Assembly (NCBI GenBank): GCA_963767945.1
Contig: CAVYGH010000013.1
Location: 162,576 to 226,575 of the forward strand
Origin: an uncultured Chloroflexia bacterium
Lineage (GTDB): Bacteria; Chloroflexota; Limnocylindria; Limnocylindrales; CSP1-4
Reading direction: 5' to 3'
DNA: 64,000 nt
The notes beneath the pieces are model-generated. The model worked only from the letters and a program-made list of their open reading frames with translations. It was not told the DNA's origin and did no database searches. Shown here piece by piece: positions 1 to 27,610 of this stretch (within the stretch, counting starts at the first letter, position 1; each line of letters begins with the position of its first letter). The position numbers and the translations under genes were made by a program.

Positions 1-1642
1 GGACCTCGGCGAACCGGAACCGCGAGCCCCAGCGACGCAGCGCGGCGGCGACGAAGAAGCCGAGCAGCAGGTAGACCGCGAACGCGACGATCAGGAACCG
101 GCCGACCGCCTCGTATTCGCTGTAGGGGACCCCGATGATCAGGAGGTCGCCGGTCTGGAAGAGGTAGTTGCCCGTCAGGCGGGCCCACGCCTGGGCGATC
201 ACGAGCCCGATCAGCAGGACCGCGAGGCCGAACGTGAGCCAGCGCCACGGCGACCGCCAGGCGCGCGCGCCGACGTACCAGCGCAGGCCGCGCGGGACCT
301 CCCAGGATGGGCGCAGGCGCGGGTCGGGCGCGGCCGCCGAGGGCGCCGCCGGCGCATCCGCTGACTGACCGCCGGCTTCCGAAGACTGGCGCTCGGCCGC
401 CTTGGCCGCCCGGTTGCCGGTGATCGCATCCAGCACCCAGACCGTCGCCCCACTGGGCGGCGCCTCGCGATGCAGCGCCGCGGAGAGCCGATTCCAGGGT
501 CGCGTGCCGTCGACCAGCCGCTCGGCCGCCGCGGCCGGGCCCTCCGGCTCGACCATCGCCGCGTCCGACCGCAGCCAGTCCGCGAGCAGCGAGACCGACA
601 CGCCGTCCGCCTGTCGCTCGGCGGCGCTCTCGAGCAGCTCGCCGACGCGCGCCGCCGGATCGTCGCCCTCCTGGGCAAGCTTCGGGAGGTCGTCCCCGAA
701 CACGATGCCCCCGAGCGCCTTATCCAGCGCCGCCGCCCCGATCGGGTCGATCCCCGGTCTCCCGTCCCGCCGCCGCTCGGACTCGCGCAGCAGCCTCGCC
801 AGCTCCTGCGGCCGATCCTCGAGCTCGCCGATGACCGTGCGTACGCCCTCGTTGTAGGCCTCGAGCCGGCGGGACAGCAGCCGGAACGGCCCGTCGTGGG
901 CGACGCCCGCCAGACCCCGGACCGGCGCCGGCAGCTGACCCATGCTCAACGACGGCTGCGGGTACGGGGCCTCGGCCGGCAGGAGCCGCTTGTCGACCTC
1001 CCAGCGCGCCGGCAGCTTGCTGCCCATGTACGGATCGCTCGCCGGGTCGAGCTCGCGGCCCAAGCGCAACGCCAAGTCCGCAACCGCGCGCTCCCGGCCT
1101 TCCCCGAGCGAGGCGACGCGCATCCCGACGGTGGCGGGTCGATCGGCGGGGACGGTCGACCAGACGGCGTCGAAGATCTCGACCTGCATCAGGTGCGCGA
1201 CCAGGTCCCGCACGAATGCCTCGGGCCAGCCGTGGCCGTCGTCGCCGGTGAGCCGCGTCAGCCCCGTGCGCGGGTGGCCGAACGACAGCATCTCCGCCCG
1301 CAGGTCCAGGAACCGGACGTCGGGGTGGCGGCCCAGGGCCACCGGCAGCGTCCGCGCGTACGCGTCCGAACGGTGTGGCGACCCGGTCGTGCCCGCACCT
1401 CCGGCGACCAATGCGACCAGCGTGCGCGGCGACGGGTCCGACCCCAGCAGCTTGAGCGCCAGCTCCTCAGCGTCGGTCGCCGCGATGTCGTCGAGTGGGA
1501 CGATCAGGAGCAGCCGGACCGGGAGATCCGTCAGCGCCGAGCTGTCCGAGAACGGGAACGGATCGGTCGACGCGGGCGGCTTGATCTCGCGCAGCCGGGC
1601 CCGGACGGCCGGCTGCCGGAGGTCAACCCGGACGACGGTCAT
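1..1642 (-). CDS. Hypothetical protein, partial (runs off window start). Third gene of the tubulin-like/vWA operon. C-terminal part has hydrophobic TM-like segments.
   Basis: Minus-strand ATG at 1642 overlaps the stop (1623-1625) of the upstream tubulin-like gene by 20 nt, suggesting translational coupling. My hand translation gives a protein-like sequence ending in hydrophobic stretches (LTFGLAVLLIGLVIAQAW, FLIVAFAVYLLLGFFVAAAL). Not listed in the ORF track because it has no stop inside the window. Confidence 0.4.
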   Translation of the reverse strand, partial: MTVVRVDLRQPAVRARLREIKPPASTDPFPFSDSSALTDLPVRLLLIVPLDDIAATDAEELALKLLGSDPSPRTLVALVAGGAGTTGSPHRSDAYARTLPVALGRHPDVRFLDLRAEMLSFGHPRTGLTRLTGDDGHGWPEAFVRDLVAHLMQVEIFDAVWSTVPADRPATVGMRVASLGEGRERAVADLALRLGRELDPASDPYMGSKLPARWEVDKRLLPAEAPYPQPSLSMGQLPAPVRGLAGVAHDGPFRLLSRRLEAYNEGVRTVIGELEDRPQELARLLRESERRRDGRPGIDPIGAAALDKALGGIVFGDDLPKLAQEGDDPAARVGELLESAAERQADGVSVSLLADWLRSDAAMVEPEGPAAAAERLVDGTRPWNRLSAALHREAPPSGATVWVLDAITGNRAAKAAERQSSEAGGQSADAPAAPSAAAPDPRLRPSWEVPRGLRWYVGARAWRSPWRWLTFGLAVLLIGLVIAQAWARLTGNYLFQTGDLLIIGVPYSEYEAVGRFLIVAFAVYLLLGFFVAAALRRWGSRFRFAEV

Positions 1643-4600
1643 CGAAGACCCCGGTGGGGTATGGCGACTCGACCGTGTCGTCCTGCGCCGGCACGCCGGC
1701 GTTCGGCGCGCGCCGCAGCATCTGGATCTCCGCGATCACCTCGGCGAACGACCCGTAGCCCAGCGTGCCGAACGACAGGTTCAGCGCGTGCGGCAGGGCC
1801 CGCTCCCAGAACGCCACGTACTCGTCGACCTGGTGGATCCGCTTCGCCTGCTCGGTGGGGGAGCGACGGAGCTCGTCGCGCAGGTGCCGCAGCTCGGCAC
1901 GCTCGGCGCTGCCGCGGCCCGTGGGATCGAGCTCGGGGACGAAGTCAATGAACAGCGGCCGATCGGCCAGCTCGTCGCTCGTCGGCCGGCGCCGCTCCAC
2001 GAAGCCCGCCGGCACCGTCCGCGACAGCCCGCGCAGGATCTCGGAGACGGCCTCCGTGTCGGTCACGTAGCGGTGCGAGATCTCACGCAGATATGCGTCG
2101 GCGAGGGGCGCGAGATGGTTCGCGAACGGCATGTCGTCGAGGCTGATGGCGAGCTGCGGCGCATCGGGCGCCCCGAACCGCACCCGGAGCGTCCCGAACG
2201 AGCCGGTCTGGCCGTTCGAGGGGATCCGGTCCGCCGTGAGCTCGCCGTTCCAGGCCGCCGCCAGCAGGCGCTGGAGCAGCTCGGCGCGCGCGTCCTCGTC
2301 GATGAAGTCGATCGGGTCGCGGTAGCCCTCGCGCTGGCGCCAGGCCAGCCGGTCCGTGGGGTCGGGCCGGAAGGCGCTCTCGACCCAGGTGTTGAGGCCC
2401 TCGGCGCCGTCGGGCACGTCCATGACGCCCTGGCCGACGAGCGCGACCGAGATCACGAGCGCCGTGTCCGCGGAGCGCGGGACGAAGGTGGGCGAGGCCT
2501 GCTGGAGGAACCGCGACAGCGAGGGGTGGGTCGCCAGCGTCTCCGCCAGCCGCGCCTCCACGCGCGAGTTCTGCTCGCCCGGGTAGGCGATGGCGACGAT
2601 GGCCTCGATCTCGCGGTCGGTCGCCGGGGGCACCACCGAGTCGGTGATCGACGTCAGCATCTTGGTCCGGAACTGGCGCACGTCGGGCGACAGCGCGCCT
2701 TCCTCCTGCTCGGCCCACTCGCGGAGGATCTCCGTGATCCCGGCATACACGCCGGGCTGGCCGAACACCCGCTCGACGTCCTCCCGGATGGCCTCGACCA
2801 GCCGCTCGGCAAGCCGGGTGGGCTCCGCGAGGTCCGACTTCTCCCAGGTCTCGAGGACGTCGTCCTGGTGGCGGAGGACGAGGGCCCGGGCGATGGTGTT
2901 GGTGGTCGGGTCCGAGAGGGACAGGTCCACGCCCAGCGCCCGCACGACGTTCTCGGTCAGCTGCTCGACGTTCACCCCGGCGGCGAACCGCTCGACGATG
3001 CTGGCCGCCTCGTCGATGAGCGTCTCGTTGGTGGCGCCCTTGCTCCACTCGTCGAGGCCGCGGAGGGTCGCGTCCAGCCGGGCTCGGAGCGTGCCGCTGG
3101 CGGCCCGGAACTTGACCGCGGTGCCCTTGGGGTTGGCGAGGTAGGCGCGCCAGGTGGCGTCGACCTGCGATTCCTCGGCCTGCCGGACCTGGCGGACGGC
3201 GCCCGGGTCGATCTGTGGCTCGCCGCGGCGGAACAGGCCGCGCTGGTGGACGACCATCTCCTGCGAGGACGGGAACTCGACGACCGAGCGGCCCTTGCGC
3301 TTCTCCGTGCCGACCAGCTGGCCCGACGCCCAGCGCGCGGACGTCTCGCGGCCGGCGTCCATCGCGCCGACGAGGTCGAGGTCCGTGGTGTTCGACGTGC
3401 GCCGGACGAGCGTGACCCACTGGGCGCCGTGGTCGCCCAGCGACGCCGCACGCTCGAAGGCCGTGGCCGCGCCCGCGGACAGGTTGTCCGGGACGCCGCC
3501 GTCCTTCTTCGTCGAGGGGCTGATCATCACCTGGCGGATCGCCGCCTGGTAGGCCTGCATGGCCGAGGAGACGTCCTCGGGCTCGGTCGAGATCGGCTGG
3601 ATGACGGCGGTCCGGTAGCGGCCGTCGATCGGCGCGAGGAGCGGCGGCTGGACGCCGGCCCGCTCCTGGAACAGCTCCGTGCGCCGGGTGCGGGTCGCGT
3701 CGTCGAGCCCCGTCCGGACGTCGGTGAGGAACGTCGCGAGGAGCCGCTTGGACACGAGGTGGACGAGCTGCTCGCGGGCATCGGGGACGGCGACGGTCGC
3801 GGCGCTCGCGAACGGCCGTCGGCCGACGAACGTGGGATGGCGCTCCTGGAGCAGCCCCGAGTTGTTCACGAGCTTGTCGAGCAGCGTCATCGTCCGTCCG
3901 GACCCGAGCGGCCCCGACGCGAGGTTCGAGATCGAGGGCTGCCGGACGAGGTTGGTGGCGAAGCGCGCGACGCGCTCGGCCAGCGCGCTGTCGGTCGGCA
4001 CGTCCGCCGGGCGGTGGAACAGGAACGCCGTCTTCACAGCGGCGGCCGGCATCACGACCCGCAGCGAGCCGGTGCCCGCCGAGCCGCCGGGGTAGTCGTG
4101 GGTCGGCGGCTCGCCCTCGGCAGTCGGGGCGTTCTGGGCGTCGATGAGCTGCCCGAGGTCGGCCAGGGCGCGGATCGCGTTCAGCGAGCCGTTCTTGCGC
4201 TTCGAGGGCGCGAGGACGTTGTCGAACGCGCTCGGCAGCAGGACCAGCGGCACGATCACGAACGGCGTCCCGCCGAGCTGCGTCGACCCCTCGTGCGCGA
4301 TCAGGCGCATGACGTCCATGAACAGGCCGCCGCCCGTGCCGCCCGAGAGCGAGCAGCCGACGAGGAACACGACGTTCCGCGACGCCGCCGCGCCGCCCGT
4401 GAACTCCTCGAGCTGGCCGACGGAGCCGACGATGCGCTCGATCGGCCGCCGGAAGTCGCGCAGCAGCGCCTCGGCGCCGTAGCGCTCCATGAAGGCGAAC
4501 ATCGCGGCCCGGCCGATGGTCGGGTACTGGCCGGCGCCCGTGGAGAGGGGCGCGAACGTGGGCTCGTTGCCCCACTCGCTCATCTTGGGCGGCAGCCAGT

Positions 4601-4961
4601 TGTCGGTGGCGTCCTTCGCGGTCTTCGAGCCGCGCAGGAGGTTCGTCACGTCGGCCGAGGAGTGGCCGGCGCTGCCGAGCGCCTTCACGAACGTCGCCGT
4701 CTTGAGCGCCACGTCGGGGGAGCGGGGGAGGAGGTCCGACTGGAGCGAGACCAGGTCCTGCTCGCTGAAGTCGATGTACAGGGTCTGGATGAACCCCGGC
4801 AGCTCGTACGGCTTGAGGCCCGTGAAGGTGCCGCCGCGGCTGACGAGCTTGCGCCCATCGGGCCCGGTGACCTCCTCGCGGAGCAGCCGCTCGAAGGCCT
4901 TGCCGATCTTGAGACCGGTCCCGCCGATGCCGATGTAGACGAAGCGTGTTGAGAAGCTCAT
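1623..4961 (-). CDS. FtsZ/tubulin-superfamily GTPase (1112 aa): N-terminal tubulin-like GTPase domain of about 330 aa plus a C-terminal extension of about 780 aa of unknown function
   Basis: N-terminus VYIGIGGTGLKIGKAF matches the glycine-rich T1 nucleotide-binding loop. VGCSLSGGTGGGLFMDV matches the tubulin/FtsZ signature motif (GGGTGSG/T4 loop). The ORF is intact over 3.3 kb and is adjacent to the vWA gene on the same strand. Confidence 0.65.
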   Translation of the reverse strand: MSFSTRFVYIGIGGTGLKIGKAFERLLREEVTGPDGRKLVSRGGTFTGLKPYELPGFIQTLYIDFSEQDLVSLQSDLLPRSPDVALKTATFVKALGSAGHSSADVTNLLRGSKTAKDATDNWLPPKMSEWGNEPTFAPLSTGAGQYPTIGRAAMFAFMERYGAEALLRDFRRPIERIVGSVGQLEEFTGGAAASRNVVFLVGCSLSGGTGGGLFMDVMRLIAHEGSTQLGGTPFVIVPLVLLPSAFDNVLAPSKRKNGSLNAIRALADLGQLIDAQNAPTAEGEPPTHDYPGGSAGTGSLRVVMPAAAVKTAFLFHRPADVPTDSALAERVARFATNLVRQPSISNLASGPLGSGRTMTLLDKLVNNSGLLQERHPTFVGRRPFASAATVAVPDAREQLVHLVSKRLLATFLTDVRTGLDDATRTRRTELFQERAGVQPPLLAPIDGRYRTAVIQPISTEPEDVSSAMQAYQAAIRQVMISPSTKKDGGVPDNLSAGAATAFERAASLGDHGAQWVTLVRRTSNTTDLDLVGAMDAGRETSARWASGQLVGTEKRKGRSVVEFPSSQEMVVHQRGLFRRGEPQIDPGAVRQVRQAEESQVDATWRAYLANPKGTAVKFRAASGTLRARLDATLRGLDEWSKGATNETLIDEAASIVERFAAGVNVEQLTENVVRALGVDLSLSDPTTNTIARALVLRHQDDVLETWEKSDLAEPTRLAERLVEAIREDVERVFGQPGVYAGITEILREWAEQEEGALSPDVRQFRTKMLTSITDSVVPPATDREIEAIVAIAYPGEQNSRVEARLAETLATHPSLSRFLQQASPTFVPRSADTALVISVALVGQGVMDVPDGAEGLNTWVESAFRPDPTDRLAWRQREGYRDPIDFIDEDARAELLQRLLAAAWNGELTADRIPSNGQTGSFGTLRVRFGAPDAPQLAISLDDMPFANHLAPLADAYLREISHRYVTDTEAVSEILRGLSRTVPAGFVERRRPTSDELADRPLFIDFVPELDPTGRGSAERAELRHLRDELRRSPTEQAKRIHQVDEYVAFWERALPHALNLSFGTLGYGSFAEVIAEIQMLRRAPNAGVPAQDDTVESPYPTGVFDDRRPG

Positions 4962-4980
4962 CGCTGGTCAGCCCCTTCTG

Positions 4981-6895
4981 TTAATCCCAGTCGTCGTTGG
5001 AGGCGTTGGTGGAGCCGGGTCGATCGGGGACCGCGGACGAGCCCCAGTCGTCGTCGACGACGGGATTCGCCTGCCTCGGCCGCCGATCGCTGGCCTGCAG
5101 GGTCAGGTTGTGGGATCCGCCGTCCGGATCGATGACCTCGACGTCGTCGCCGACCTTGGCGGCGATGAGGCCGCCGGCCGACCGCACGTCGAAACGGTTC
5201 GAGCCCTTGTACTGGACCTGGACGTCCGCGTTGCCCGCGCCGGTCCATCTGGATCTCGTTGCCCACGAACGCGAGGCCCGTGCGCGGCCCGCGGCCGAGC
5301 GGAATGGCCTCGGAATCGTCGACGTAGGCGGTGATGTACGGCCGCAGGCGGTTGCGATACCACGCGACGACGTACCAGGCCGCGGCGAGCGCGGCGGCGG
5401 TGACGAGGCCGCCCACGATCCAGCGGAGGAGCGGGTTGCAGTCGAAGACACCGCCACACGGCGAGAACGGGTTCGAGGCGGGGGAGAGGGCGCTGACCCC
5501 GGTGGCGTTCTCGGCCGTCGCCCGACAGCTGTACTCGGTGCCGTTGGCGAGGCCGGTGACGTCGATCGAGGTCGAGGCGGAGACGGGCTCGTTGACCGGC
5601 TGCCAGGTCGTGCCGCCGTCGGCGCTGCACTCGTAGTGGTAATCGACGATCGGCGAGCCGCCGTCCGATCCGGCGACGACCGAGACGACCGCCGATTGAT
5701 CGCCGCGATCCGCGTTGACGCCTTCGGGAGCGGCGGGGCGGCCGGCCGGCGTCGCTGACCCGTCGGTGGGCGTCCAGGGGCCCTGGCCGACCTCGCTGAT
5801 GGCGGCGACCTCGCACGCGTAGCTCGTCCCGTTGTCGACGTCGTCGACGACCGCCTCGTGCTCGGTCTTTGGCAGCTCCTGGGTCGGCAGCCAGTCGGCG
5901 GAGCCGTCGGCGCGGCAGCGGGCCTGGTAGGCGTCGACCGGCTTCGTCCCCTCGTCCGCGGGCTCGGCCCAGGACAGGTCGATGAACCCGTCGCCGGCCT
6001 CCGCCTTGACGTCGCCGACGGGGCCGGGGGCGTTCTCCGGCTTCGGCGTGGGCGTCGGCTTCGGGGTGGGGCTCGGCTCGACCGTGAACGAGCAGGTCAC
6101 CTGCTCGAGCGCGTCGGCCACCGCGTGACCGGCGTCGACCGCGCTCCCGAACACCACGGTGTCCCACGCGAACGCCTCGCCGCCGGGACAGGGCTCCATG
6201 TCGTGGGTCAGGCCGGACAGGTCCTCGAGGCCGGATCGAAGCGCACCCCGCTGCTTCGGATCGAGGCCCATGCCGACGGGCAGGAACGCGAACGGTGTCC
6301 GGTCGCCGAACAGCCGTTGCGCCGCCGGGAGGACCTCGCTGGCGGGGACGCCCGCGACATCGTGCTTGCCGTCGGTGAAGAAGACGACCGCCGGTCGCTT
6401 CGAGTCCGCCGGCAGGTGCTTGGCCGCCTCCCGCAGCGCGGCGACGTAGTTGGTGTCGGTCCCGACGTCGCCGACGATCTGCGCGTCCGGACCGCGCCGG
6501 TACTGGCGCGCGGCGAGGCGAAGGCAGTCGGCCAGCTTGTCGACGGCGGCGGGGTTCTGGTGGAGCTCGAGACCCTGGCAGCCGGGATAGCCCTGGGCGC
6601 GGCTCGCGAACGGGACGAGCGAGATCACGGCGTTGCCGTTCACCAGGTCGTCGCGGGTGACCTCGACGCGGTCCGCGATCTCGACGAGGGCGTCCGCGAA
6701 CCGCGTGCGGTTGGGCTTGTCGCTCAGGATCGAGTCGGAGAAGTCGAGCGCGACGACGACGTCGGACGGCTCGGCCGGCTCCGCGGCGACGGCGGTGGCG
6801 ATGCCGACGGCCACCATGACGATGGCCAGCGCGCCCCCGACCGCTCGGCGAAGTGCGCCGCTGAGGCGGGCGTCGGCCTGTGGCGTCCGGATCAC
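4981..6895 (-). CDS. Secreted, membrane-anchored vWA-domain protein. Domain order: signal peptide, vWA, PT-rich linker, 2x FN3, TM helix, cytoplasmic tail. One frameshift near 5235 in the tail.
   Basis: N-terminal signal/TM segment (GALAIVMVAVGIATAVAA). MIDAS motif DFSDS in VVVALDFSDSI. VVFFTDGKHD is typical of vWA. PTPKPTPTPKP linker. Two FN3-like modules (…SYACEVAAISEVGQGPW, …EYSCRATAENATGVS). C-terminal TM LLRWIVGGLVTAAALAAAWYVVAWY. The tail continues in the frame of ORF 4981..5457 (…VQVQYKGSNRFDVRSAGGLIAAKVGDDVEVIDPDGG…). Confidence 0.7.
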
Positions 6896-7218: not shown

Positions 7219-7648
7219 ATGACGACCAACGATCCGACCGACCGACCCCTGCCGAAGCCACGCCGACGACACGGCCTCGGCGCTGACGGCATCGAGGCCT
7301 TGCGGTCACGCCAGGATGGCAAGTGCGCGATCTGCCGGAAGCCCGAGACCGATGCACCCGGCGGTCGCCTGGCCGTCGACCACGACCATGCCCACTGTCC
7401 GGGCAAGATCGGGTGCCCCGACGTGCGTCCGCGGTCTCCTCTGCGTGAACTGCAACAACCTCCTCCGATCGGCTCGAGACGATCAGCGGATCCTGCGGGC
7501 GGCCATCGACTACATCGCCGGTCCGGCGGCGATCGAAGCCCAGCGATCGAGGACCTGCCGGTCACCGAGTTGCTCCGTCGGCTGCGCCGCGAGGACGCGG
7601 ATCCGCGGCTCATGCCGAGGCAGGGTCGGCGCGATCGGTTCTTCATGA
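7219..7648 (+). pseudogene. Endonuclease VII-like (recombination endonuclease VII family) gene with a +1 frameshift near 7420
   Basis: CAICRKPETDAPGGRLAVDHDHAHC in one frame, continued by TCVRGLLCVNCNNLL…AAIDYIAG in the +1 frame (ORF 7316..7648). Together they match the Endo VII CxxC…VDHDH…RGLLCxxCN pattern. Confidence 0.5.
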
Positions 7649-8553: not shown

Positions 8554-9925
8554 GTGGCGCCGGGTGGTCGACTGATGTCGGACCCCAAGGATCGTCCAGG
8601 CGGTCGCGGATCGCGTCCGCGACTACGGCGAGACGTGGAGGGCCACGTCCGTCGCCACCGAGCTCGCCGATCGCCCACGGGCCGAACGGGCCGATCCGGT
8701 CGCTCTATCGCGCCGCGGACAGGCCGCGCCCAAGGTCCTGTGGGTCGCCGTCGCCCACCGCCGGCCTCGTGGCGGCCGCGTTCGCGCGCCGAGACCAGGC
8801 CGTGGATCCGGGGCCGGCACACGACGGGCGACGTCGGATCCGGCTCGAACCAGCCGTGGAACGCCCTCGCCGAGCCACTCGACCTCGACCTCCGCTGGAT
8901 CCGCCGACTCGCGAAGCGCCTCGAACACCACCTCGCCGAGGTGACGCGGCCGCCGGCCGGCAGGCGTCCTGGGATCCGATGGTGAACGGCGCCCGCGCCT
9001 TCGCCTTCGAGGGGACGTCGACGATCCTGCCGTCACTGCGCCAGGCGGCCGCCGAAGCCCGCGTCAGGCCGGACTCGATCGACGGAGCGCGACCCGACGC
9101 CACCGACGTCCGGCGCCTCGGTGCCCAGCTGCTCGGTGAGACCGTGGACGGTCCTCACGCGCACGATCGGCGACGACCTCGCGGTCGAGATGTTCGTCGA
9201 GGCGGCGCCGCGCCGCCGCGCACGAGCTCGTGGACGCCCCGTATGCGCTGCGGGAGGCCGTCCAGGCCATGCAGCCGGGGCAGTTCGACGTCGAGACGCC
9301 CGCCTTGCCGCCGTGCGCGAGGTGTTCGGCAGCGGCTCTGGCGCTACCGCACGGGTCGTCCTGCACGGGTCGGGATCGACGCCCGTCTCGACCTGGCCCG
9401 CAGCGCGGGTCCGTGGTGGGCGCTCGACGGGCTCGCGATCGTCTCCGAGCGACCGCTGGTGGCAGCGTCGACGAGCGCGGCCGGCTCCACGCCGAGCACG
9501 GGCCGGCGCTCGCCTGGGGCGACGGGTTCGAGATCTGGGCGTGGCATGGCGTCCGGGTGGACCGGAGATCGTGCTCGACGCCCGACTCGATCACGGTCGC
9601 GTCCATCGACGCCGAGCGGAACATCGAGCTGCGTCGCGTGCTCATCGAGCGGTTCGGCGAGGAGCGGCTGCTGCGCGAGGGCGGCGCAAAGCTGGTCGAC
9701 GAGGACGCCACGGGCCGGCTCTGGCGGCGCGAGATGCCGATGTCGTGGCCGCGCGACGAGGCCGTCGTGATGGTCGAGGTCCTGAACTCCACGCCCGAGC
9801 CGGACGGCTCGCGGAAGACCTACTTCCTGCGGGTGCCACCGACGACGAGCAGCGCCCGGACAGCGGTCGCCTGGACGTTCGGGCTGCGTGGCGACGAGTA
9901 CCGGCCGGCCATCGAGTCATGAGCA
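8554..9925 (+). pseudogene. Decayed gene of unknown function. Protein-like segments are spread over all three + frames with a frameshift roughly every 50-150 nt. The clearest fragment is the C-terminal about 120 aa at 9560-9922.
   Basis: Protein-like fragments: GSNQPWNALAEPLDLDLRWIRRLAKRLEHHLAEV; SWDPMVNGARAFAFEGTSTILPSLRQAAAEARVRPDSIDG; SAGPWWALDGLAIVSERPLVAAS; DERGRLHAEHGPALAWGDGFEIWAWHGVRV; and IDAERNIELRRVLIERFGEERLL…DEAVVMVEVLNSTPEPDGSRKTYFLRVPP. They lie in successive different frames on the same strand. Confidence 0.35.
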
Positions 9926-10363: not shown

Positions 10364-12254
10364 GTGTTCGCGGTCGCGTCCGTCACGTTGCTGTCGCTGC
10401 TGGCGATCGTGCCCGCCGGCGTCATCGCCTCGGGCACGCAGTTCGGGCCGTACCGGGTCACGTCGGTCGGATCGGAGCCAGAGGCGGTCGCGATCGGCGA
10501 CGTCACGAGCGACGGCATCGCCGATATCGTCCTGACCACGGGTTACGCAGGCACGCCGGCCGACTTCGGGCTGTTCGTGTTCGCCGGCCTGGCCGACGGC
10601 ACGCTCGCCGCGCCGGTCAGGTACGCGACCGCGGGGACGTACCCGCAGCGGCCGGAGACCGTCGACATCGGCGACGTGGACGGCGACGGGCGGCCCGATG
10701 TCGTCGTCGGCCTCTCCGGGCTCGGCGATCCAGCTCTTCGCGCAGGCCGCGGACGGGACGCTGGGCGCGCCGGTACTTCGTCCCGAGCGCGGACAGCCAC
10801 AAGATCGCGGTGGTCGACACGTCCGCCGGAACGGCGGTTGCCGGGATCGGGTGGGGGACCGACACCGTCACGATCTTCGCCGACACGGGCGCGGGACTCG
10901 CGGTCGACCGCGACCTACCCGGCCCGGCACGATGGCTGGGACGACATCGAGGCCGGCGACGTCACCGGCGACGGGCGACCGGACATCGTCGTGATGTCCG
11001 GCCAGGGCCTCGTGCCCAACCTCAGCGTGCTCCCGGCGCTCGCGGACGGAACATTCGGCACGGCGGCCGAGTACGCGGTCGGCGACAACCAGCTCACGCG
11101 GGGAATCGGAATCGGCGAGGTGAGCGGCGACGGGCGGGACGACGTCGTCGCGGCCTACGGCGGCAACAGCCCGAACGGGCGGCTGGGGATCTTCGCCCAG
11201 GCGCCGACGGGAGCGCTCGACGCGCCGCCGATCCCGTACCAGAGCTACGACATCCCGGGTGCGGTCGAGGTCGTCGGACGTCAATCGGCGACGGATGGTC
11301 CGAGGCGATCGTCGTCCACGAGGGCTGGCTGCGCATCGGCGTGTACCGGGGCCAGGTGGGCGGACAGTTCGCCGGGGAGGACCTGTATTCCGTCCCGTTC
11401 TCGAACGGCGGCAACCCGCATGGCCTGGCCGTCGGCGACGTGACCGCGGACGGGTGGCCGGACATCGTCATCGCCGATGACCTACACGGGCTGCTGATCC
11501 TGCCCAATGTCGGGCAGTCCTGAGGCCGACGCCGACGCCGACGCCGACGGCATCGCCGTCGTTCACCTACCCGCCGCCCACGTTCCCGCCTCCGACACCG
11601 ACGCCGGCGCCGACGCCCACTCCCGTCCCCGACGCCGTCGCCCACGCCCACCCCAACGCCCACGCCGACCCCGGCGCCCGTCCCGCCGTCGGCACCCCAG
11701 TCGCTCGCGGCGAGCCCCAACCTGGCCGCCGGCGTCGGCCTCACCTGGCAGCCGCCGGCCGACGCAGGGCACGTTCCCGGTCACCGGCTACCGGATCTAT
11801 CGCGGGACGGGGGGCGCGACGCCGACGCCGCTGGTCACCGTGGGCGACGTGCTCGCCTTCACCGACGCGTCGGTCGCGAACGGGACGTCGTACCGCTACC
11901 GCGTCGCGGCGATCAGCGCCGCCGGCGAGGGGGCGGCCTCGGCGGAGGTCGCCGCCGTGCGCGGGTACCGCCCCGACCGCTCCCCGAAACCTGACGGCGA
12001 CCACGACCAAGTCCGGCATCGCCCTGACCTGGGCCGCCCCGTCGTCGACCGGCGGCACCGCGATCACCGGCTACCGCGTGTACCGCGGCACGGCGAGCGG
12101 CGGCGAGACGCTCTACGTCAGCTACGGGCCCGACGCGATCGGGATGACCGACACGAGCGTCGCCAAGCGCTCGACCTACTTCTACCGGGTCAGCGCCGTG
12201 AACGTCCTGGGTGAGAGCGCGTTCTCGGCCGAGGTCAACGCCACGGCGCGCTGA
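10364..12254 (+). pseudogene. Secreted FG-GAP-repeat protein with a PT-rich linker and two FN3 domains. Interrupted by about 6 frameshifts and one in-frame stop (or an assembly-error-ridden CDS).
   Basis: Signal peptide (VASVTLLSLLAIVPAGVIA). FG-GAP/VCBS-like calcium-binding motifs (GDVTSDGIADIV, GDVDGDGRPDVVV, GDVTGDGRPDIVV, GEVSGDGRDDVVA, GDVTADGWPDIVI) distributed over three frames. PTPTPTPAPTP linker. FN3 modules (…GTFPVTGYRIYRGTGGATPTPLVTVGDVLAFTDASVANGTSYRYRVAAISAAGEG…; …TGYRVYRGTASGGETLYVSYGPDAIGMTDTSVAKRSTYFYRVSAVNVLGES…). Stop at 12252-12254. Confidence 0.5.
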
Positions 12255-13279: not shown

Positions 13280-14311
13280 CTACAGGACTGAGACCTGGAC
13301 CAGACCGTTGACCGCGGCGTCGACGGCGACCTGGTCATCGCCGCCGAGGGTGTCGATGTCGAGCCTGTCGCCCTCGGGGTCGGCGTGAGTGACGCGCACC
13401 GCGGCCGCCAGGCCCTCGACGCTGATCGAGCCACCGCTTGCGGTGAGGGCGATGGTGTCGACCCCGGCCGTGCCGGTGACGGCGACGAAGTCCTTCTGGT
13501 TGTCGGTCGTCGTGCCGCCGCGGACCGCCGCGAGGTCGACGTCGACGCGGGCGAGGTCGGTCCCGGTCACGTCACCGATGGTCACATGCTCATTCCCCAG
13601 GAGGGTCTGGAAGCGGATCGCCTCGACGGCGTCGAGATCCATGACGACGTTGCCGACGTCGCGGGTCACCGCGACCCGGTCGGCGTTGGCCGTGACGTTC
13701 AGGACCTCGTCGCCGTCGGACCCGGTGAAGACGAGGGCGTCGGCGCCGGCCCCACCCCGGACGACGTCCGAGCCATCGCCCGGATCCCAGGCGAAGGTGT
13801 CGTTGCCGCCGCCGAGAGACGCGGTGTCGGCACCCCCGTTGCCGTCGACGACGTCGTTGCCGCGGCCGCCGACGAGAGTCTCGTTTCCAGTGCCGCCGAT
13901 GAGGGTGTCATCGCCGTCCTGGCCCTCGATCCGCGTCGGTTTCGCGTTCGTGAAGCCGCCGTTGCCGGTGTCGATCCGGACCCGGTCGCGGCCGTCGCCG
14001 GCCTCGACGCTGATGGCCGTGAAGGACCGGAGGCGGAACACGTGGTCGGCCGACCCGTTGTCGCCGACGTCGACCTGGAGCCGGCTCGGGCGCGAACGAC
14101 TCAGGCGAAGGGTGATCAGGTCGCGTGATGGGGTTCCCGAGACGACGAGGCTGCCGTTGACGATGACGGCACTGACCGTGGACGCCGCACCGACTGGCGT
14201 CGGGGCGGTGACGAGGAGGAAGAGGAGAGCCAGCGCGGTGGCTGCCGCGGCGGCGGCGAGCCGGCGTTCGACGCCGGGCTCGGCTCGTGGGTTGTGGTTG
14301 ACGATGGACAT
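13280..14311 (-). CDS. Secreted calcium-binding beta-roll (RTX/hemolysin-type repeat) protein
   Basis: Signal peptide (AAAAATALALLFLLVTAPTPVGAAS). Tandem GGxGxD nonapeptides (LIGGTGNETLVGGRGNDVVDGNGGADTASLGGGNDTF…GGAGADALVFTGSDGDEVL). Confidence 0.7.
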   Translation of the reverse strand: MSIVNHNPRAEPGVERRLAAAAAATALALLFLLVTAPTPVGAASTVSAVIVNGSLVVSGTPSRDLITLRLSRSRPSRLQVDVGDNGSADHVFRLRSFTAISVEAGDGRDRVRIDTGNGGFTNAKPTRIEGQDGDDTLIGGTGNETLVGGRGNDVVDGNGGADTASLGGGNDTFAWDPGDGSDVVRGGAGADALVFTGSDGDEVLNVTANADRVAVTRDVGNVVMDLDAVEAIRFQTLLGNEHVTIGDVTGTDLARVDVDLAAVRGGTTTDNQKDFVAVTGTAGVDTIALTASGGSISVEGLAAAVRVTHADPEGDRLDIDTLGGDDQVAVDAAVNGLVQVSVL

Positions 14312-14380
14312 GACGTGGCTCCGGGGAGGGATGGGTGGGGGCGGAGGAAGGCCCCCACCCATCGAAAGCGGGTTGGTCTC

Positions 14381-23931: not shown

Positions 23932-26900
23932 CTACTTGAGCACGACGTAGGTGTCGAAGTTGGCGCGCTTGCCGTTGGTGCTGACGTTGATGACCTTGAT
24001 CCGGTGGGCGCCGCTGGAGCCCCAGCTCCGGGCGACGATGATCCGGCCGAACTTGGTCACCTTCGCCCCCAGGCTGAACGTGCCCACCAGCTTGCCGTCG
24101 ACCCTGACCCGGACCAGCGCCGGAGGTCTTCGACTTCGTGGCGACGTAGAGGATCGACCGACCGCGGAACTGGGCTCGCGGCGCTGGCGCCGGGGTCGTT
24201 CGTGACGGCATAGCCCGCACCCGATGCGCGGGAGTCGATCACGGAGCGCCAGGTGCCCTTGTACGTCACGACGTTCTTCGAGCCGCTGTTCAGGGCCACG
24301 AGCCTGCGGCTGCCCGAGACGGCCCACGCCGAGGTGTTGCCCTCGACGTCGGTCGCCCGGACGCGCCAGACGAGGGACTGCTTGAAGGGGTACCAGCGTC
24401 GGACCGTGGTGCCGAGACCGGTGTAGACCTTCTTGAAGGCGGCGCCGCCGATGCTGACCTGGACCTCGTACTTGGCGAGGCCCGAGCCGGTCGTCCGTCG
24501 CGCCCCACGAGATGCGAAGCGGGGCGGTCTGGTCGACGCGGCCCTTGGCGAACGCGACGACCGGGGCCGAGACGACCGGGGCGATCGTGTCCGGCGTGAC
24601 CGTGACGGTCAGCGTCGCCTGGTCGGTGAGGTGGCCATCGCTCACGGTGTACGTGATGACGGCCGGACCGTTGAACGAGGCCGCCGGCGCGAACCGGACC
24701 TGGCCGCCAACGATGCTGACGGCTCCGGCGTCGACCGGGAGCACGGAGGCCAGGGTGGCCGACAGCGTGTCGCCGTCGACGTCGGTGTCGTTGCTGACCA
24801 CGTTGTAGACGACCGCGCCGCTGCCCTGGGCGACGGTGGCGACGTCATCGACGCCCACCGGGGCATCGTTGACGCAGGTGATCCAGATGGTGACGTGGCC
24901 CGTGTCGCTGCCGCCGTTGCCGTCGCCGACCGTGTAGTCGAAGCCGGCGACGCTCGGGCCGCACAGGTTGGCGTCGGGAGTGAACGTGATGGTGTCGCCG
25001 ATCAGGTCGACCGTCCCGCCCGTGGGGTTCGTGACGGCGGTGACGGTGAGCGTGTCGGGATCGGTGTCGGTGTCGTTGCCGACCAGGGTCGCGCCGTCGA
25101 TGACGACGTCGGTGTCCTCCGTGCCGGTCGCGAGGTCATCGACCGCGACGGGGGGCACGTTGGCCACGCAGTTGATGTCGACGATGACGTGGGCCGAGTC
25201 CGACCCGCCGTTGCCGTCGCTGATCGAGTAGTCGAAGCTGCCCTCACCGGTGCCGCACAGGTCGTCGGCGGGGGTGAAGGTGACCACGCCGGCCGTCAGG
25301 TCGACGGTGCCGCCGGTCGGGTTGGAGACGCTGTCGACGACGAGCGTGTCGCCGGAGTCGATGTCGCTGTCGTTGGCGAGGATCGCGGCGGTGACGTCGT
25401 TGGCGCCGGAGTTCTCGTCGACCATGATCGTGTCATCGTCGGCGTCCGGGGCGTCCTCGGTGCAGGTGAGGTCGACATCGGCGTAGCCGGTGTCGGTCCC
25501 GCCGTTGCCGTCGCTGATCGTGTAGTCGAAGCCGTTGCCGATGTTGCCGCAGGCGTCAGCATCGGGGGTGTAGGTGATCGTGCCCGCATCGAGCGAGACC
25601 GTGCCGCCGACCGGGTTCGAGACGCCGGTGACGACGAGGGTGTCGCCCTCGGGGTCGGTGTCGTTGGCCAGGAGCTCCGCGTCGGTCACGAGGAAGTCCG
25701 TGTCCTCGGTGCCCTGGAAGTCGTCGTCGACGGCCACCGGGGCGTCGTTGACGCACGTGATGTCGACCGTGACGGTCGCCGTGGCGGTGCCGCCGTGGCC
25801 GTCGGAGATCGCGTAGTCGAAGCCGCCCTCGCCCGTGCCGCACAGCTCGGCATTGGGCGTGAAGGTGACCGTGGTGCCGTCCAGCTCGACGGTGCCGCCG
25901 ACCGGGTTCGAGACGCCGGTGACGACGAGGGTGTCGAGGTCGATGTCGGAGTCGTTGACCAGGAGGTCGGCCGCGTCGACGACGAGGTCGGTGTCCTCGG
26001 TGGCGGTCAGCGTGTCGGCCGTGGCCACCGGGTTGTCGTTCGTGCACTCGAGGTCGATGGTGACGTGGCCCGTGTCGGTGCCGCCGTTGCCGTCGTCGAC
26101 CGTGTAGTCGAAGCCACCCGCGCCCACGCCGCACTCGTCGGCGTCGGGCGTGAAGGTGATCGTCCCGGCCGTCAGGTCGACCGTCCCGCCGGTGGCGTTG
26201 GTCACGTCGCTGACGGTGAGCGTGTCGCCGTCCACGTCGTCGTCGTTGCCGACCAGCGTGGCGGCGTCGATGACGACGTCCGTGTCCTCGGTGCCCGAGG
26301 CGGTGTCGTCGACGGCGGTCGGGCCGTCGTTGACGCAGGTGACGTCGACCGTGGCATGCGCCGTGTCGGTGTGGCCGTCGCCGTCGTCGACCGTGTACTC
26401 GAAGCCGCCGTAGCCGTCGCCGCAGGCGCCGGCGTCGGGGGTGAAGGTGACCGCGCCCGCGACCAGGGCGACCGTGCCGCCCGTGGCGCCCGAGGCGTCC
26501 GTGATCGTGAGCGTGTCGCCGTCCGCGTCAGAATCGTTGGCCAGGAGGCCGGCGGTGACGTCGGTGTCGGCCGAGTCCTCGGCGACCGTGACGGTGTCGT
26601 CGCCGGCGACCGGGTCGTCGGACGTGCACGCGAGGTCGATCGAGACGTGGCCGTTGTCCGTGCCGGTGCCGTCGCTCACCGTGTAGGTGAAGCCGGCGGT
26701 GCCGCAGAAGTCGGCATCGGGGGTGAACGTCACGTCGCCCGAGTCGAGCGACACGGTGCCGCCGCTGGGGTTCGAGACCGCCGACACGTGGAGGCTGTCG
26801 AGCTCGGTGTCGGTGTCGTTCGCGACGAGGTCCGCGCCCGGGATGACGACGTCCGTGTCCTCGGTGCCCGAGGCGGTGTCGTTGACCGCGTGCGGGTCGT

Positions 26901-27610
26901 CGTTGACGCAGGTGATGTCGACGGTGACGCTGGCCGAGTCCGACCCGCCGTTGCCGTCCGAGATCGTGTAGTCGAAGCCACCCTCGCCGTTGCCGCACAG
27001 GTTGGCGTCCGGCGTGAAGGTGACGACCCCGGCCGCGAGGACCACCTCACCGCCCGAGGCGTTCGAGACGCCCGTGACCGTGAGGGTGTCGCCGTCCGGC
27101 GTCCGTGTCGTTGGCCTTGATCGCGGCCGTGACGTTGGTCGGCGTGTCCTCGGAGACCGCGATCGTGTCGTCGTTGGCGACCGGCGGATCCGGCTGGTTC
27201 TGCACGACGATGTTGATCGCGGCGGGCCGCGTGTGCTTGTCGTTGGCGACGTTGTACGTCGTCGACGCCGAGCCGAAGAAGCCCGGCGCCGGCGTGAACG
27301 TGTAGTCGCCGTTGGCGGCCACGACCAGCGTGCCGACCGTCGGGCTCAGCGTCGGGAACGGCGCGACGACCGTGAGCGTCCCCTCGCCGGGGTTGTCGTC
27401 GTTCGTCAGGACGTTGCCGGTCGCCGGCGTGTCCTGGAGCGTCGTGATGGTGTCCGGATGGGGGTCAGGCGGGGTGCCGGGTCCGGCTGCCGCCGTGGCT
27501 GGCACCAGCAGGGCGTTCGCGATGATGAGACCGGCGGTCGCCGTCCCCACCAATCGCGCACGGAGCGGGCTCGTTGACAGTTTGATCACGGGGACGACAA
27601 CCTCGGGCAA
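23932..27610 (-). CDS. Giant secreted adhesin-like protein (about 1200 aa): N-terminal signal peptide, 11 or more tandem repeats of about 95 aa (VCBS/cadherin-like), and a C-terminal domain. One frameshift near 27080 and about 3 in the last 300 nt.
   Basis: N-terminus in ORF 27047..27610 (signal peptide LVGTATAGLIIANALLVPATAAA). Repeat unit is roughly VNDAPVAVDDxxxGTEDTDxxIxxAxLLANDTDxDGDTLxVTxVSNPxGGTVxLxxGTxTFTPDAxxCGxGxGGFDYTxSDGNGGTDTGHVxIDxxC, repeated with about 60-70% identity. The C-terminus ends …IKVINVSTNGKRANFDTYVVLK, with fragments in other frames (…LNSGSKNVVTYKGTWRSVIDSRASGAGYAVTNDPGASAA…). Confidence 0.7.

Follow-up and report, generated by a model that had tools for sequence, protein, structure and literature searches.

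The window that we analyzed is a 64,000-nucleotide stretch of DNA from an uncultured Chloroflexia bacterium. At its start lie three co-directional genes on the minus strand, encoding a vWA-FN3 receptor, a tubulin-like GTPase, and a membrane-anchored partner. The tight packing reported by the initial annotation was borne out, with a 19-nt spacer between the first two genes and a 20-nt overlap between the second and third. The features of the locus are as follows:

4981..6895, minus strand: vWA-FN3 receptor gene, 637 aa after removal of one inserted base (ORF, Pfam, and frame correction)
6731..6745, minus strand: MIDAS D51-F-S53-D-S55 (DFSDS) of the vWA domain
6449-6463, minus strand: MIDAS T148 of the vWA domain
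6368-6382, minus strand: MIDAS T174-D175-G176 of the vWA domain
5456..6013, minus strand: two fibronectin type III (FN3) domains, aa 295-480, extracytoplasmic (Pfam fn3)
5357..5431, minus strand: single transmembrane (TM) helix, aa 489-513, with RNRLR directly after it on the cytoplasmic side (hydropathy scan)
4984..5356, minus strand: cytoplasmic tail, 124 aa, aa 514-637 (corrected translation)
5233..5235, minus strand: G-run with one inserted nt, which puts the cytoplasmic tail out of frame; the window reads CGCGGGCAAC, against CGC-GGCAAC in L008, L005, and L004
4962..4980, minus strand: 19-nt spacer between the vWA-FN3 and tubulin-like genes, with the Shine-Dalgarno-like AGAAGGGG (sequence)
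1623..4961, minus strand: giant tubulin-like (FtsZl1/Tubulin_2) GTPase, an intact gene whose 1112-aa product lacks any credible TM helix
3717..4961, minus strand: tubulin/FtsZ-fold body, aa 1-415, carrying T1, T3, T4, and T5
4914-4931, minus strand: T1 GIGGTG, aa 11-16, GTP loop
4509-4538, minus strand: T3 GAGQYPTIGR (GAGQYP, aa 142-147), GTP loop
4326-4352, minus strand: T4 SLSGGTGGG, aa 204-212 (SGGTGGG, aa 206-212), GTP loop
4224-4241, minus strand: T5 LLPSAF, in the tubulin/FtsZ-fold body
1707..3716, minus strand: conserved C-terminal extension of about 700 aa, with no Pfam family and a high-confidence structure prediction
2322-2354, minus strand: motif D-R-L-A-W-R-Q-R-x-G-Y of the alpha/beta domain (conservation)
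1..1642, minus strand: third gene, "B1" type, truncated at the window edge, with codons 1-547 of about 824 present
185-247 and 38-103, minus strand: TM hairpin (two helices) of the third protein

The reading frames of the three genes have GC3 values of 0.87 to 0.97; the long plus-strand ORFs (e.g., 942..4952), with GC3 around 0.5 to 0.7, are antisense shadows. A scan for promoters and terminators in the region upstream of the operon gave no hits. The organism is uncultured, and its assembly is error-prone. The genes had been described as intact, which holds for the tubulin-like gene; the vWA gene contains the 1-nt insertion, and the third gene ends at the window edge. The uncorrected vWA ORF (4958..6895) has one extra G relative to three close relatives, and in L001 and L008 the tail shares one frame with the remainder of the gene. 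Once corrected, the gene stops at 4981-4983, 19 nt ahead of the tubulin-like ATG. Three close relatives (L004, L005, and L007) have other frameshifts in the three genes, so the breaks look like assembly indels rather than decay. Purifying selection acts on all three genes (dN/dS, 0.14 to 0.34), and this, together with the location of the lone indel in a homopolymer and the differing indels of the relatives, led us to reject a pseudogene reading.

The vWA-FN3 gene starts with a GTG at 6895, with GGGAAGGAG just before it. Its product is a type I membrane protein made up, in order, of a signal peptide, a vWA domain with a MIDAS, a Pro/Thr linker, two FN3 domains, a TM helix, and a cytoplasmic tail. 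The predicted topology, with the MIDAS vWA and both FN3 domains outside and a tail in the cytoplasm, was confirmed; the tail itself, which had been put at about 100 aa, has 124 aa after frame correction. Pfam recognized fn3 in two stretches (5e-17). The VWA_2 match was weak on its own (0.0024), and the MIDAS motif is complete: across 60 neighbor proteins, conservation is 90% or more for D51, S53, S55, T148, T174, D175, and G176. FN3 domains are limited to the Chloroflexia clade (5/60 upstream neighbors), and other clades have other Ig-like domains. PHROG "tail protein" matches of the vWA protein were discarded as FN3-level similarity only. We looked for diversifying selection on the FN3 and vWA parts and did not find it, with no part of the ectodomain having a dN/dS above 1. 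The cytoplasmic tail consists of a beta-rich stretch (a label taken from Kaur et al. 2020), a low-complexity linker, and a C-terminal acidic-aromatic peptide (...VVDDDWG...NDDWD). In nearly all of 75 upstream vWA ORFs, the last TM helix is followed by a tail of 120 to 200 aa, and DDWD, DPWL, DPNF, YDSAF, or a similar sequence closes many of them.

As modeled, the second gene product is a soluble protein with a complete two-domain tubulin/FtsZ fold and conserved GTP-binding loops. The AlphaFold model has a pLDDT of 87.7. Pfam PF13809 (Tubulin_2) matched aa 8-340 with 129.4 bits (cut-off, 27; 2.6e-37) and is found in almost all full-length homologues; the protein missed the gathering score of PF00091 (17.9 bits; cut-off, 33). 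The placement of the N-terminal domain inside the tubulin/FtsZ superfamily, proposed from the loops GIGGTG and SGGTGGG, therefore rests on the modeled structure and PF13809. Homologue searches gave 61 proteins, mostly of 1020 to 1120 aa, and a repeat search with a 21-sequence profile returned essentially the same 62 proteins. In a collection of one genome per species (185,579 species), there were 464 confirmed relatives, and most representatives aligned with the full-length profile as one stretch. Searching PDB sequences with a profile gave nothing significant and no Tubulin_2 member (CetZ at E = 1.5), and no family for the protein was found in NCBIfam, PADLOC, or PHROGs.

The T4 loop is a variant of the canonical GGGTG[ST]G signature in which S204, G207, G208, T209, G210, and G212 are invariant (55 sequences). 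In T1 (pattern GxGxxG) and T3 (pattern GAGxxP), G11, G13, G14, G16, G142, A143, G144, Q145, and P147 are at least 90% conserved. With its acidic catalytic residue, the T7 "synergy" loop of such proteins complements the active site of the neighboring subunit in line and is needed for polymer-activated GTP hydrolysis. In an hhalign comparison with an approximate Escherichia coli FtsZ sequence, only S4 to H5 aligned (4.5% probability) and nothing past H5, so that T7 was not located by sequence; the fold search gave no residue mapping for it either. Beyond the GTPase body, the AlphaFold model is helical through aa 416-780, forms an alpha/beta domain at aa 781-950, and ends in helices at aa 951-1085. 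In the alpha/beta motif, R875, Q876, and R877 are invariant, and D870, L872, W874, and G879 are at least 90% conserved. The tubulin-like gene is the most conserved of the three (dN/dS, 0.14 to 0.18), with a value of 0.09 for the alpha/beta domain.

The ATG of the third gene lies at 1642, inside the end of the tubulin-like gene. Because the window ends within this gene, the downstream side was judged from relatives only, among which full-length homologues have 824 aa (P0063) and 828 aa (P0064). A helical hairpin anchors the product in the membrane, and its two large parts are both predicted to be cytoplasmic. Pfam, PADLOC, PHROG, and NCBIfam have no family for it. An hhalign comparison of its clade with the actinobacterial gene at the same position gave 99.4% probability (E, 1.9e-21; 699 columns), and that actinobacterial gene is family "B1" of Makarova and Koonin (2010), the tie to SGR_3832 being by synteny.

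The order vWA, tubulin-like, and third gene recurs in most of 87 related loci. Among 60 upstream neighbors, VWA_2 was found in 51 and VWA in 47, and the gene was on the same strand in 51/60 loci, mostly ending 15 to 260 nt before the tubulin-like gene. Nearly all loci have a homologue of the third gene downstream, and the genes often overlap by 4 nt. We therefore rejected an incidental adjacency of the vWA gene.

While this three-gene core is constant between clades, the accessory genes vary. In 58 of the 87 loci (actinobacterial), the core is joined by a DO-GTPase (PF19975, 30.6 bits) and by a kinase-like gene. The Chloroflexia clade is without these genes and often has a membrane-anchored SNase instead. 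Neither tblastn nor Pfam lists revealed a DO-GTPase in L001-L016 or L084, and ten selected ORFs on the upstream side of the window, up to about 35 kb, gave no match to PF19975 or PF19993. Within 8 to 10 kb in close relatives, neither the DO-GTPase/GAP1 pair nor the FNIII-HRDC protein was found, and at E up to 1 no Pfam family, those of GAP1 (GAP1-N2, -M, and -C) included, matched the third protein or the other neighbors that were scanned for L084 and L085. In L001, L006, and L008/L084, the third gene is immediately followed by a gene whose product starts with an SDDWD/SDEWD motif and continues with a TM helix and an SNase domain; this position falls beyond the window. The SNase link comprises four species-level loci only, and the L002 copy, a lipoprotein, lacks the motif.

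Fusions to STAND NTPase and trypsin domains occur in some members of the family, and in L086 and L087, Trypsin-TPR and Trypco2 genes adjoin the module. In the close relatives L002 and L084, the surroundings include PIN/PhdYeFM, Fic, Macro, PARG, and ADP-ribosylglycohydrolase genes, as well as a reverse transcriptase with a methylase and MoxR (AAA_5) with DUF2201. The ORFs scanned in the window's own flanks are not defense genes; endonuclease VII, DUF6745, FG-GAP, RTX, and a cadherin-like protein were found there instead. Several surface-protein genes lie near the module in the window. A prophage or plasmid origin was set aside, as the ORFs of the window that were scanned included no supporting genes. 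In PADLOC-DB 2.0, no defense model was matched by any of the three proteins at E up to 1.

The locus is a three-gene vWA/FtsZl1 (Tubulin_2)/"B1" module. It adds no new kind of system; the module has been in the literature since 2010. The supplement of Makarova and Koonin (2010) lists Streptomyces griseus SGR_3834 (vWA), SGR_3833 (FtsZl1), and SGR_3832 ("B1 membrane-associated protein"), and Santana-Molina et al. (2023) equated PF13809 with the FtsZ-like proteins of Makarova and Koonin. The FtsZ-like 1 assignment of the initial annotation was right, given the PF13809 score, the identical gene order in S. griseus, the recurring vWA neighbor, and the B1 homology. The earlier account also cited the computational prediction of membrane remodeling for FtsZl1 by Makarova and Koonin (2010) but missed a second published reading, in which Kaur, Burroughs, Iyer, and Aravind (2020, section 29) placed the actinobacterial form in DO-GTPase "conflict systems" and reported the tubulin theme in actinobacteria, firmicutes, and chloroflexi. 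In agreement with the claim that no member has been characterized biochemically, full-text literature searches found no experimental work on the FtsZl1/Tubulin_2 family.

We tentatively favor an envelope-spanning sensor-switch (probability, about 0.4), whose most likely role would be that of an envelope-linked system for surveillance or "conflict," directed at invaders or at damage to the envelope, a role predicted by Kaur et al. (2020) for the actinobacterial relatives. A ligand would be bound by the vWA/FN3 ectodomain, and the single TM helix would relay the signal to the tail, whose C-terminal peptide may dock on the tubulin-like protein or on B1. Docking would then trigger or place, at the membrane and on the B1 anchor, a GTP-dependent assembly of the tubulin-like protein; this assembly would be the threshold step, perturbing the membrane or recruiting effectors. 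In the Chloroflexia clade, the scheme would run without the DO-GTPase/kinase layer and with the membrane-anchored SNase as the usual fourth gene. Coupling of the three genes is suggested by the recurring TM helix and tail, in many cases with the acidic-aromatic peptide, and by purifying selection. The link from the vWA domain outside to the GTPase inside, which the initial annotation had put forward, remains inferential, and docking on the tubulin-like protein is suggested by motif conservation only. For the conflict role, the loci with DO-GTPase and kinase genes, the STAND and trypsin fusions, the toxin-antitoxin and ADP-ribose surroundings, and the changing accessory genes are all suggestive. 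Against the favored reading stand the literature searches that yielded no experiment on any member, the lack of a PADLOC match, the non-defense flanks of the window, an ectodomain dN/dS that never exceeds 1, and, for the putative polymerization, a catalytic T7 loop that was not located by sequence. Moreover, a sensor outside the cell is unusual among known anti-phage systems.

The published membrane-remodeling prediction would make the module a housekeeping or developmental machine rather than a defense: filaments under the membrane, tied to it by B1 and the vWA protein, would bend or organize it for vesicles, septa, or cell-shape features. The complete tubulin fold with its GTP loops, the membrane location of both partners, the conservation of the tubulin-like gene, which is the highest of the three, and the frequency of the module in filamentous actinobacteria and Chloroflexia are consistent with such a machine. 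However, the patchy distribution (464 relatives among 185,579 species), the variable accessory genes, and the missing T7 assignment count against it, and the fusions and toxin-antitoxin and ADP-ribose surroundings are atypical of housekeeping cytoskeletons; we consider it possible but on the unlikely side. The T6-H7 region was not alignable by sequence in Makarova and Koonin (2010), nor were T6-H7 and T7 here, which fits a switch that forms no filaments, the tubulin fold regulating the alpha/beta domain with its WRQR motif or B1. That domain is as constrained as the GTPase body, and the extension of about 700 aa might hinder longitudinal contacts. Even so, we give this switch the least credence.

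An improbable alternative, to which we give less weight than to remodeling, is an integrin-like organizer of surface proteins: the tubulin-like protein would be a scaffold that gathers or positions membrane proteins bearing short acidic-aromatic cytoplasmic peptides, with the vWA-FN3 adhesin and, in relatives, the extracellular SNase as clients, for adhesion, matrix, or extracellular-DNA handling. The MIDAS vWA and FN3 ectodomain resembles those of adhesion receptors, the acidic-tryptophan ending of the vWA tail recurs in the SDDWD/SDEWD-TM-SNase proteins, and surface-protein genes are close by. Yet the SNase gene is linked in few loci, one copy is without the motif, its position lies outside the window, and the motif match is short and of low complexity; any peptide binding is putative. 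Slightly more doubtful again is a minimal, DO-GTPase-free Chloroflexia form in which the tubulin-like protein and its B1 anchor, as a scaffold inside the membrane, would capture the vWA-FN3 C terminus and the N terminus of the co-encoded SNase through their acidic-tryptophan peptides. If true, it would be a bacterial counterpart of the integrin-to-cytoskeleton link built on a tubulin fold, coupling ligand binding outside to GTP-driven clustering of an ecto-nuclease or adhesin.

The module matters because FtsZl1/Tubulin_2 is among the most divergent branches of the tubulin superfamily and has two incompatible published predictions, membrane remodeling and an immune-like conflict system. The anatomy described here offers handles: a full tubulin fold with conserved GTP loops, the alpha/beta domain with its WRQR motif, a three-gene core common to the clades, and a docking-type peptide that recurs at the C terminus of the vWA tail. 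For experiments, cultivable Streptomyces relatives offer a better way in than the uncultured source.

Compared with the solved structures of TubZ, CetZ, BtubA/B, FtsZ, and eukaryotic or Asgard tubulins, the tubulin-like protein has only 11 to 18% identity, large insertions at S1-S2, S3-H3, and H3-S4, about 700 extra residues, and no assignable T7. Integrin I-domain receptors resemble the vWA-FN3 protein by analogy only, with an outside MIDAS vWA, a single TM helix, and a short tail that, as in integrins, could dock on a cytoskeletal protein; homology is limited to the vWA fold, and the inside partner is a tubulin fold instead of actin adaptors. The GAP1-N2-type DO-GTPase systems of Kaur et al. 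(2020) share one tubulin gene with a C-terminal alpha-helical extension and a membrane-bound protein with FNIII, vWA, and a beta-rich cytoplasmic part, but their defining DO-GTPase/GAP1 pair and FNIII-HRDC protein had no counterpart in the stretches scanned (8 to 10 kb in close relatives and, by Pfam, part of the window), and relatives have the membrane-anchored SNase. With the FtsZl1 operons (S. griseus SGR_3834-3832), the locus shares the Tubulin_2 family, the gene order with a membrane-associated third gene, a secreted or membrane-bound vWA partner with an intact MIDAS, and a tubulin-like protein of about 1,050 to 1,400 aa with a helical extension. Its tubulin-like protein likewise has the FtsZl1 layout of an FtsZ-like domain at the N terminus, a long helical region, and a C-terminal globular domain in about 1,000 aa, and the C-terminal domain described by Makarova and Koonin (2010) is mostly alpha-helical.

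Three head-to-tail genes occupy positions 1-6895 of the window, all on the minus strand, and encode a vWA-FN3 receptor (gene 1), a tubulin-like GTPase (gene 2) and a membrane-anchored partner (gene 3). The window has a G+C content of ~72%, and third-codon-position G+C was 0.87 to 0.97 in the three operon frames, the value expected for real genes in such a genome. On the same measure, long plus-strand ORFs across the operon were rejected as antisense shadows. The initial annotation described the operon accurately, except that gene 1, said to be intact, carries an extra G, and gene 3 runs off the window.

Features of the operon and of the gene just upstream.
GTG 6895, minus strand: start of gene 1, with the ribosome-binding site GGGAAGGAG ahead of it
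1623 to 4961, minus strand: gene 2, an intact ORF of 1112 codons
2322 to 2354, minus strand: D-R-L-A-W-R-Q-R-x-G-Y motif (gene 2 aa 870-880, alpha/beta domain)
ATG 1642, minus strand: start of gene 3, overlapping the gene 2 stop by 20 nt; the window edge cuts the gene after 547 codons
7219 to 7956 and 7316 to 7648, plus strand: recombination endonuclease VII gene (PF02945, 2.9e-07), split between two frames

The uncorrected gene 1 ORF is 645 aa long, and its final ~90 aa are arginine-rich nonsense. Alignment to three close relatives placed an extra G within the G-run at 5233-5235, and in the relatives L001 and L008 the equivalent tail stays in frame. Minus the extra base, gene 1 encodes a 637-aa protein ending in ...VVDDDWGSSAVPDRPGSTNASNDDWD; its stop is then at 4981-4983, 19 nt from the gene 2 start, with AGAAGGGG within the gap. 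The closest loci (92-94% protein identity) come from metagenome-assembled genomes labelled "uncultured Chloroflexia bacterium." All three operon genes (3/3) are intact in L008/L084, a single locus on a 2.69-Mb contig, and L004, L005 and L007 have frameshifts among these genes, different in each. The endonuclease VII gene has its second motif half (VRGLLCVNCNNLLR) in the other ORF, probably through a further assembly indel. Thus, the frame breaks in the operon region most plausibly reflect homopolymer indels introduced during assembly; gene decay was set aside given the intact L008/L084 and the differing frameshifts elsewhere. This reading is consistent with the selection signal, since dN/dS ranged from 0.14 to 0.34 across the three genes (against L008 and L001, respectively: gene 1, 0.32 and 0.27; gene 2, 0.14 and 0.18; gene 3, 0.34 and 0.28) and exceeded 1 in no domain.

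A pattern scan covering 185,579 species, with one genome per species, gave 464 confirmed relatives and 80 kept loci; seven more were added by exact protein look-up, for a total of 87. In nearly all of them, the tubulin-like gene is preceded by a same-strand ORF of 500-870 aa, which ends a short distance away (15-260 nt in most cases), and followed by an ORF of 600-970 aa, whose start lies at the tubulin-like stop codon or overlaps it, in many loci by 4 nt. Among 60 upstream proteins scanned, VWA_2 was matched by 51 and VWA by 47, with MIDAS residues and four cysteines at least 90% conserved across the set; fn3 was matched by 5/60, all from the Chloroflexia clade, and the others had different Ig-like domains. 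The downstream proteins matched no Pfam family, and the gene 3 clade is homologous to the actinobacterial protein at the same position (hhalign 99.4%, E 1.9e-21, 699 columns). Because the vWA gene recurs upstream and the third gene is homologous, the three-gene core is conserved across clades, and the co-occurrence that had been put forward for checking is borne out. The assignment of this neighbourhood to the FtsZ-like 1 (FtsZl1) family was also right: the supplement of Makarova and Koonin (2010) lists, for Streptomyces griseus, SGR_3834 (vWA), SGR_3833 (FtsZl1) and SGR_3832 ("B1, membrane-associated protein"), followed by a kinase, and according to Santana-Molina et al. (2023), Tubulin_2 corresponds to these FtsZ-like proteins. 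We regard it as settled that the locus is a Chloroflexia member of the vWA/FtsZl1 (Tubulin_2)/B1 module. Four freshwater loci (L009-L012), in bins labelled Oxalobacteraceae, Betaproteobacteria and Chloroflexota, share a layout with an upstream ORF of ~500-575 aa, a 1090-aa tubulin-like protein and a third protein of 1240-1285 aa (~50% longer). Their close similarity in bins of different phyla points to recent transfer or mis-binning.

The assignment of gene 2 to the tubulin/FtsZ superfamily held in a Pfam search, where aa 8-340 matched Tubulin_2 (PF13809) at 129 bits against a cut-off of 27; the classical Tubulin/FtsZ model, PF00091, stayed below threshold. Its 61 homologues, mostly 1,020-1,120 aa long, align end to end. 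Invariant or nearly invariant residues were G11, G13, G14 and G16 in loop T1, G142-A-G-Q-x-P147 in T3, S204, G207-G-T-G210 and G212 in T4, and P243 and F246 in T5, plus N261 and N277. Among 1.84 billion cluster representatives, a profile search recovered 1046 relatives at E <=1e-3 and 169 at E <=1e-30, most of which matched the whole profile in a single stretch. Some Tubulin_2 relatives (P0124, P0102 and P0117) appear fused to a trypsin-like peptidase plus STAND NTPase, a STAND NTPase alone, or four TIG domains, and several have N-terminal extensions of 500-700 aa; these may be true fusions or gene-calling merges.

Sequence search of the PDB found no member of the gene 2 family. In a fold search, aligned lengths spanned most of each target, in output without residue-level mapping, which suggests that the protein contains both tubulin domains. 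In hhalign against Escherichia coli FtsZ (an approximate sequence), only S4 to H5 aligned, and neither this alignment nor the fold search located the catalytic T7 loop. Makarova and Koonin (2010) did not find T6-H7 or the C-terminal domain by sequence analysis, and the fold evidence suggests an extension past that result. The remaining ~700 aa match no Pfam family and are confidently predicted to form an extended helical stretch, then an alpha/beta domain of no known family (aa 781-950), with helices again at the end. With a dN/dS of 0.09, the alpha/beta domain is under as much constraint as the GTPase body; its motif, D870-x-L-x-W-R-Q-R-x-G879, has invariant R875, Q876 and R877, and its other positions are at least 90% conserved. 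It may constitute a second functional site.

The gene 1 protein has a signal peptide (AVA|AEP site), a vWA domain with a full MIDAS (D51-x-S53-x-S55, T148, T174-D175-G176), a Pro/Thr linker, two FN3 domains (Pfam 5e-17) and a single TM helix (aa 489-513) followed by RNRLR. Of the 75 vWA partners examined, nearly all have this kind of inside end, a last TM helix with a tail of 120-200 aa, and many of the tails end in an acidic-aromatic peptide (DDWD, DPWL, DPNF, YDSAF, YDSYM, DDWL), a putative docking-peptide signature. Full-length gene 3 homologues are 824-828 aa long. Two membrane helices (window 185-247 and 38-103) form a hairpin with arginine-rich segments on either flank, so both large parts of the protein should be cytoplasmic.

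The actinobacterial loci were assigned by Kaur, Burroughs, Iyer and Aravind (2020) to the "GAP1-N2-type DO-GTPase systems," made up of a tubulin with a C-terminal helical domain, a membrane-bound FNIII, vWA and beta-rich protein, a DO-GTPase and GAP1. According to their prediction, these are immune-like conflict systems associated with a multicellular way of life. Of the 87 loci, 58 have a kinase-like gene plus a DO-GTPase after the third gene (in L085, PF19975, 30.6 bits), and neither lies within 8-10 kb in the Chloroflexia and freshwater clades (L001-L016 and L084). In place of these genes, the Chloroflexia relatives L001, L002, L006 and L008/L084 have a downstream SNase gene (PF00565, 3.3e-20). 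In L001, L006 and L084 it directly follows the third gene, a position beyond the window's left edge here:

L084, 12488 to 13242: SNase gene
L001, 15795 to 16564: SNase gene
L006, 8217 to 9212: SNase gene

In L084 it was read through one frameshift, and its GTG abuts the third gene's TAA. The L001, L006 and L084 proteins have an N-terminal SDDWD/SDEWD, a TM helix, a proline-rich linker and a predicted extracellular nuclease domain; in its acidic-tryptophan motif, the N-terminus is similar to the C-terminal end of the vWA-FN3 tail.

The window flanks carry ordinary surface-protein and miscellaneous genes.

9140 to 9922, plus strand: DUF6745 protein (6e-51), upstream of the operon
10364 to 11443, plus strand: FG-GAP-repeat protein, upstream of the operon
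13280 to 14380, minus strand: RTX-repeat protein
23932 to 27345, minus strand: 1137-aa protein with nine cadherin-like/Big_9 repeats
27823 to 29976, minus strand: fused ABC exporter

Frames are apparently broken around 10.3-12.2 kb. The cadherin-like protein adjoins the exporter and the RTX-repeat protein is nearby, an arrangement suggestive of a locus for an adhesin exported by type I secretion.

Evidence on the module's biological role is mixed. Counting for a conflict system are the DO-GTPase association in actinobacteria, the STAND NTPase and trypsin-domain fusions of some family members, and trypsin-TPR and Trypco2 neighbours. So do the close-relative flanks, which, unlike those of the window, are rich in defence or toxin-antitoxin genes: L002:15976-22478 and the L084 flanks hold MoxR (AAA_5)/DUF2201, N6/N4 methylase/large reverse transcriptase, PARG, ADP-ribosylglycohydrolase, Macro and Fic genes, as well as several PIN/PhdYeFM pairs. 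Counting against it are the ordinary flanks of the window copy, the lack of a PADLOC match and the lack of any sign of diversifying selection in dN/dS by domain. Full-text literature searches turned up no experimental work on this family.

The working model that we rate likeliest, with a probability of about 0.4, is an envelope-spanning sensor-switch belonging to a surveillance system. The MIDAS/FN3 ectodomain would bind a ligand and the tail of the vWA protein would dock on the cytoplasmic GTPase, which would then assemble at the membrane with the B1 hairpin protein as its support, this assembly being the threshold or effector step. Membrane remodelling, as Makarova and Koonin (2010) read the family, is a less likely rival; that the module is an integrin-like organiser of surface proteins seems unlikely, and that gene 2 is a non-polymerising GTPase switch more unlikely still.

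The module has already been described twice. The window operon has the same order, vWA, FtsZl1 and B1, as SGR_3834 to SGR_3832 of S. griseus; it is not a new kind of system, and what it contributes is a variant particular to its clade, together with some detail of the anatomy.
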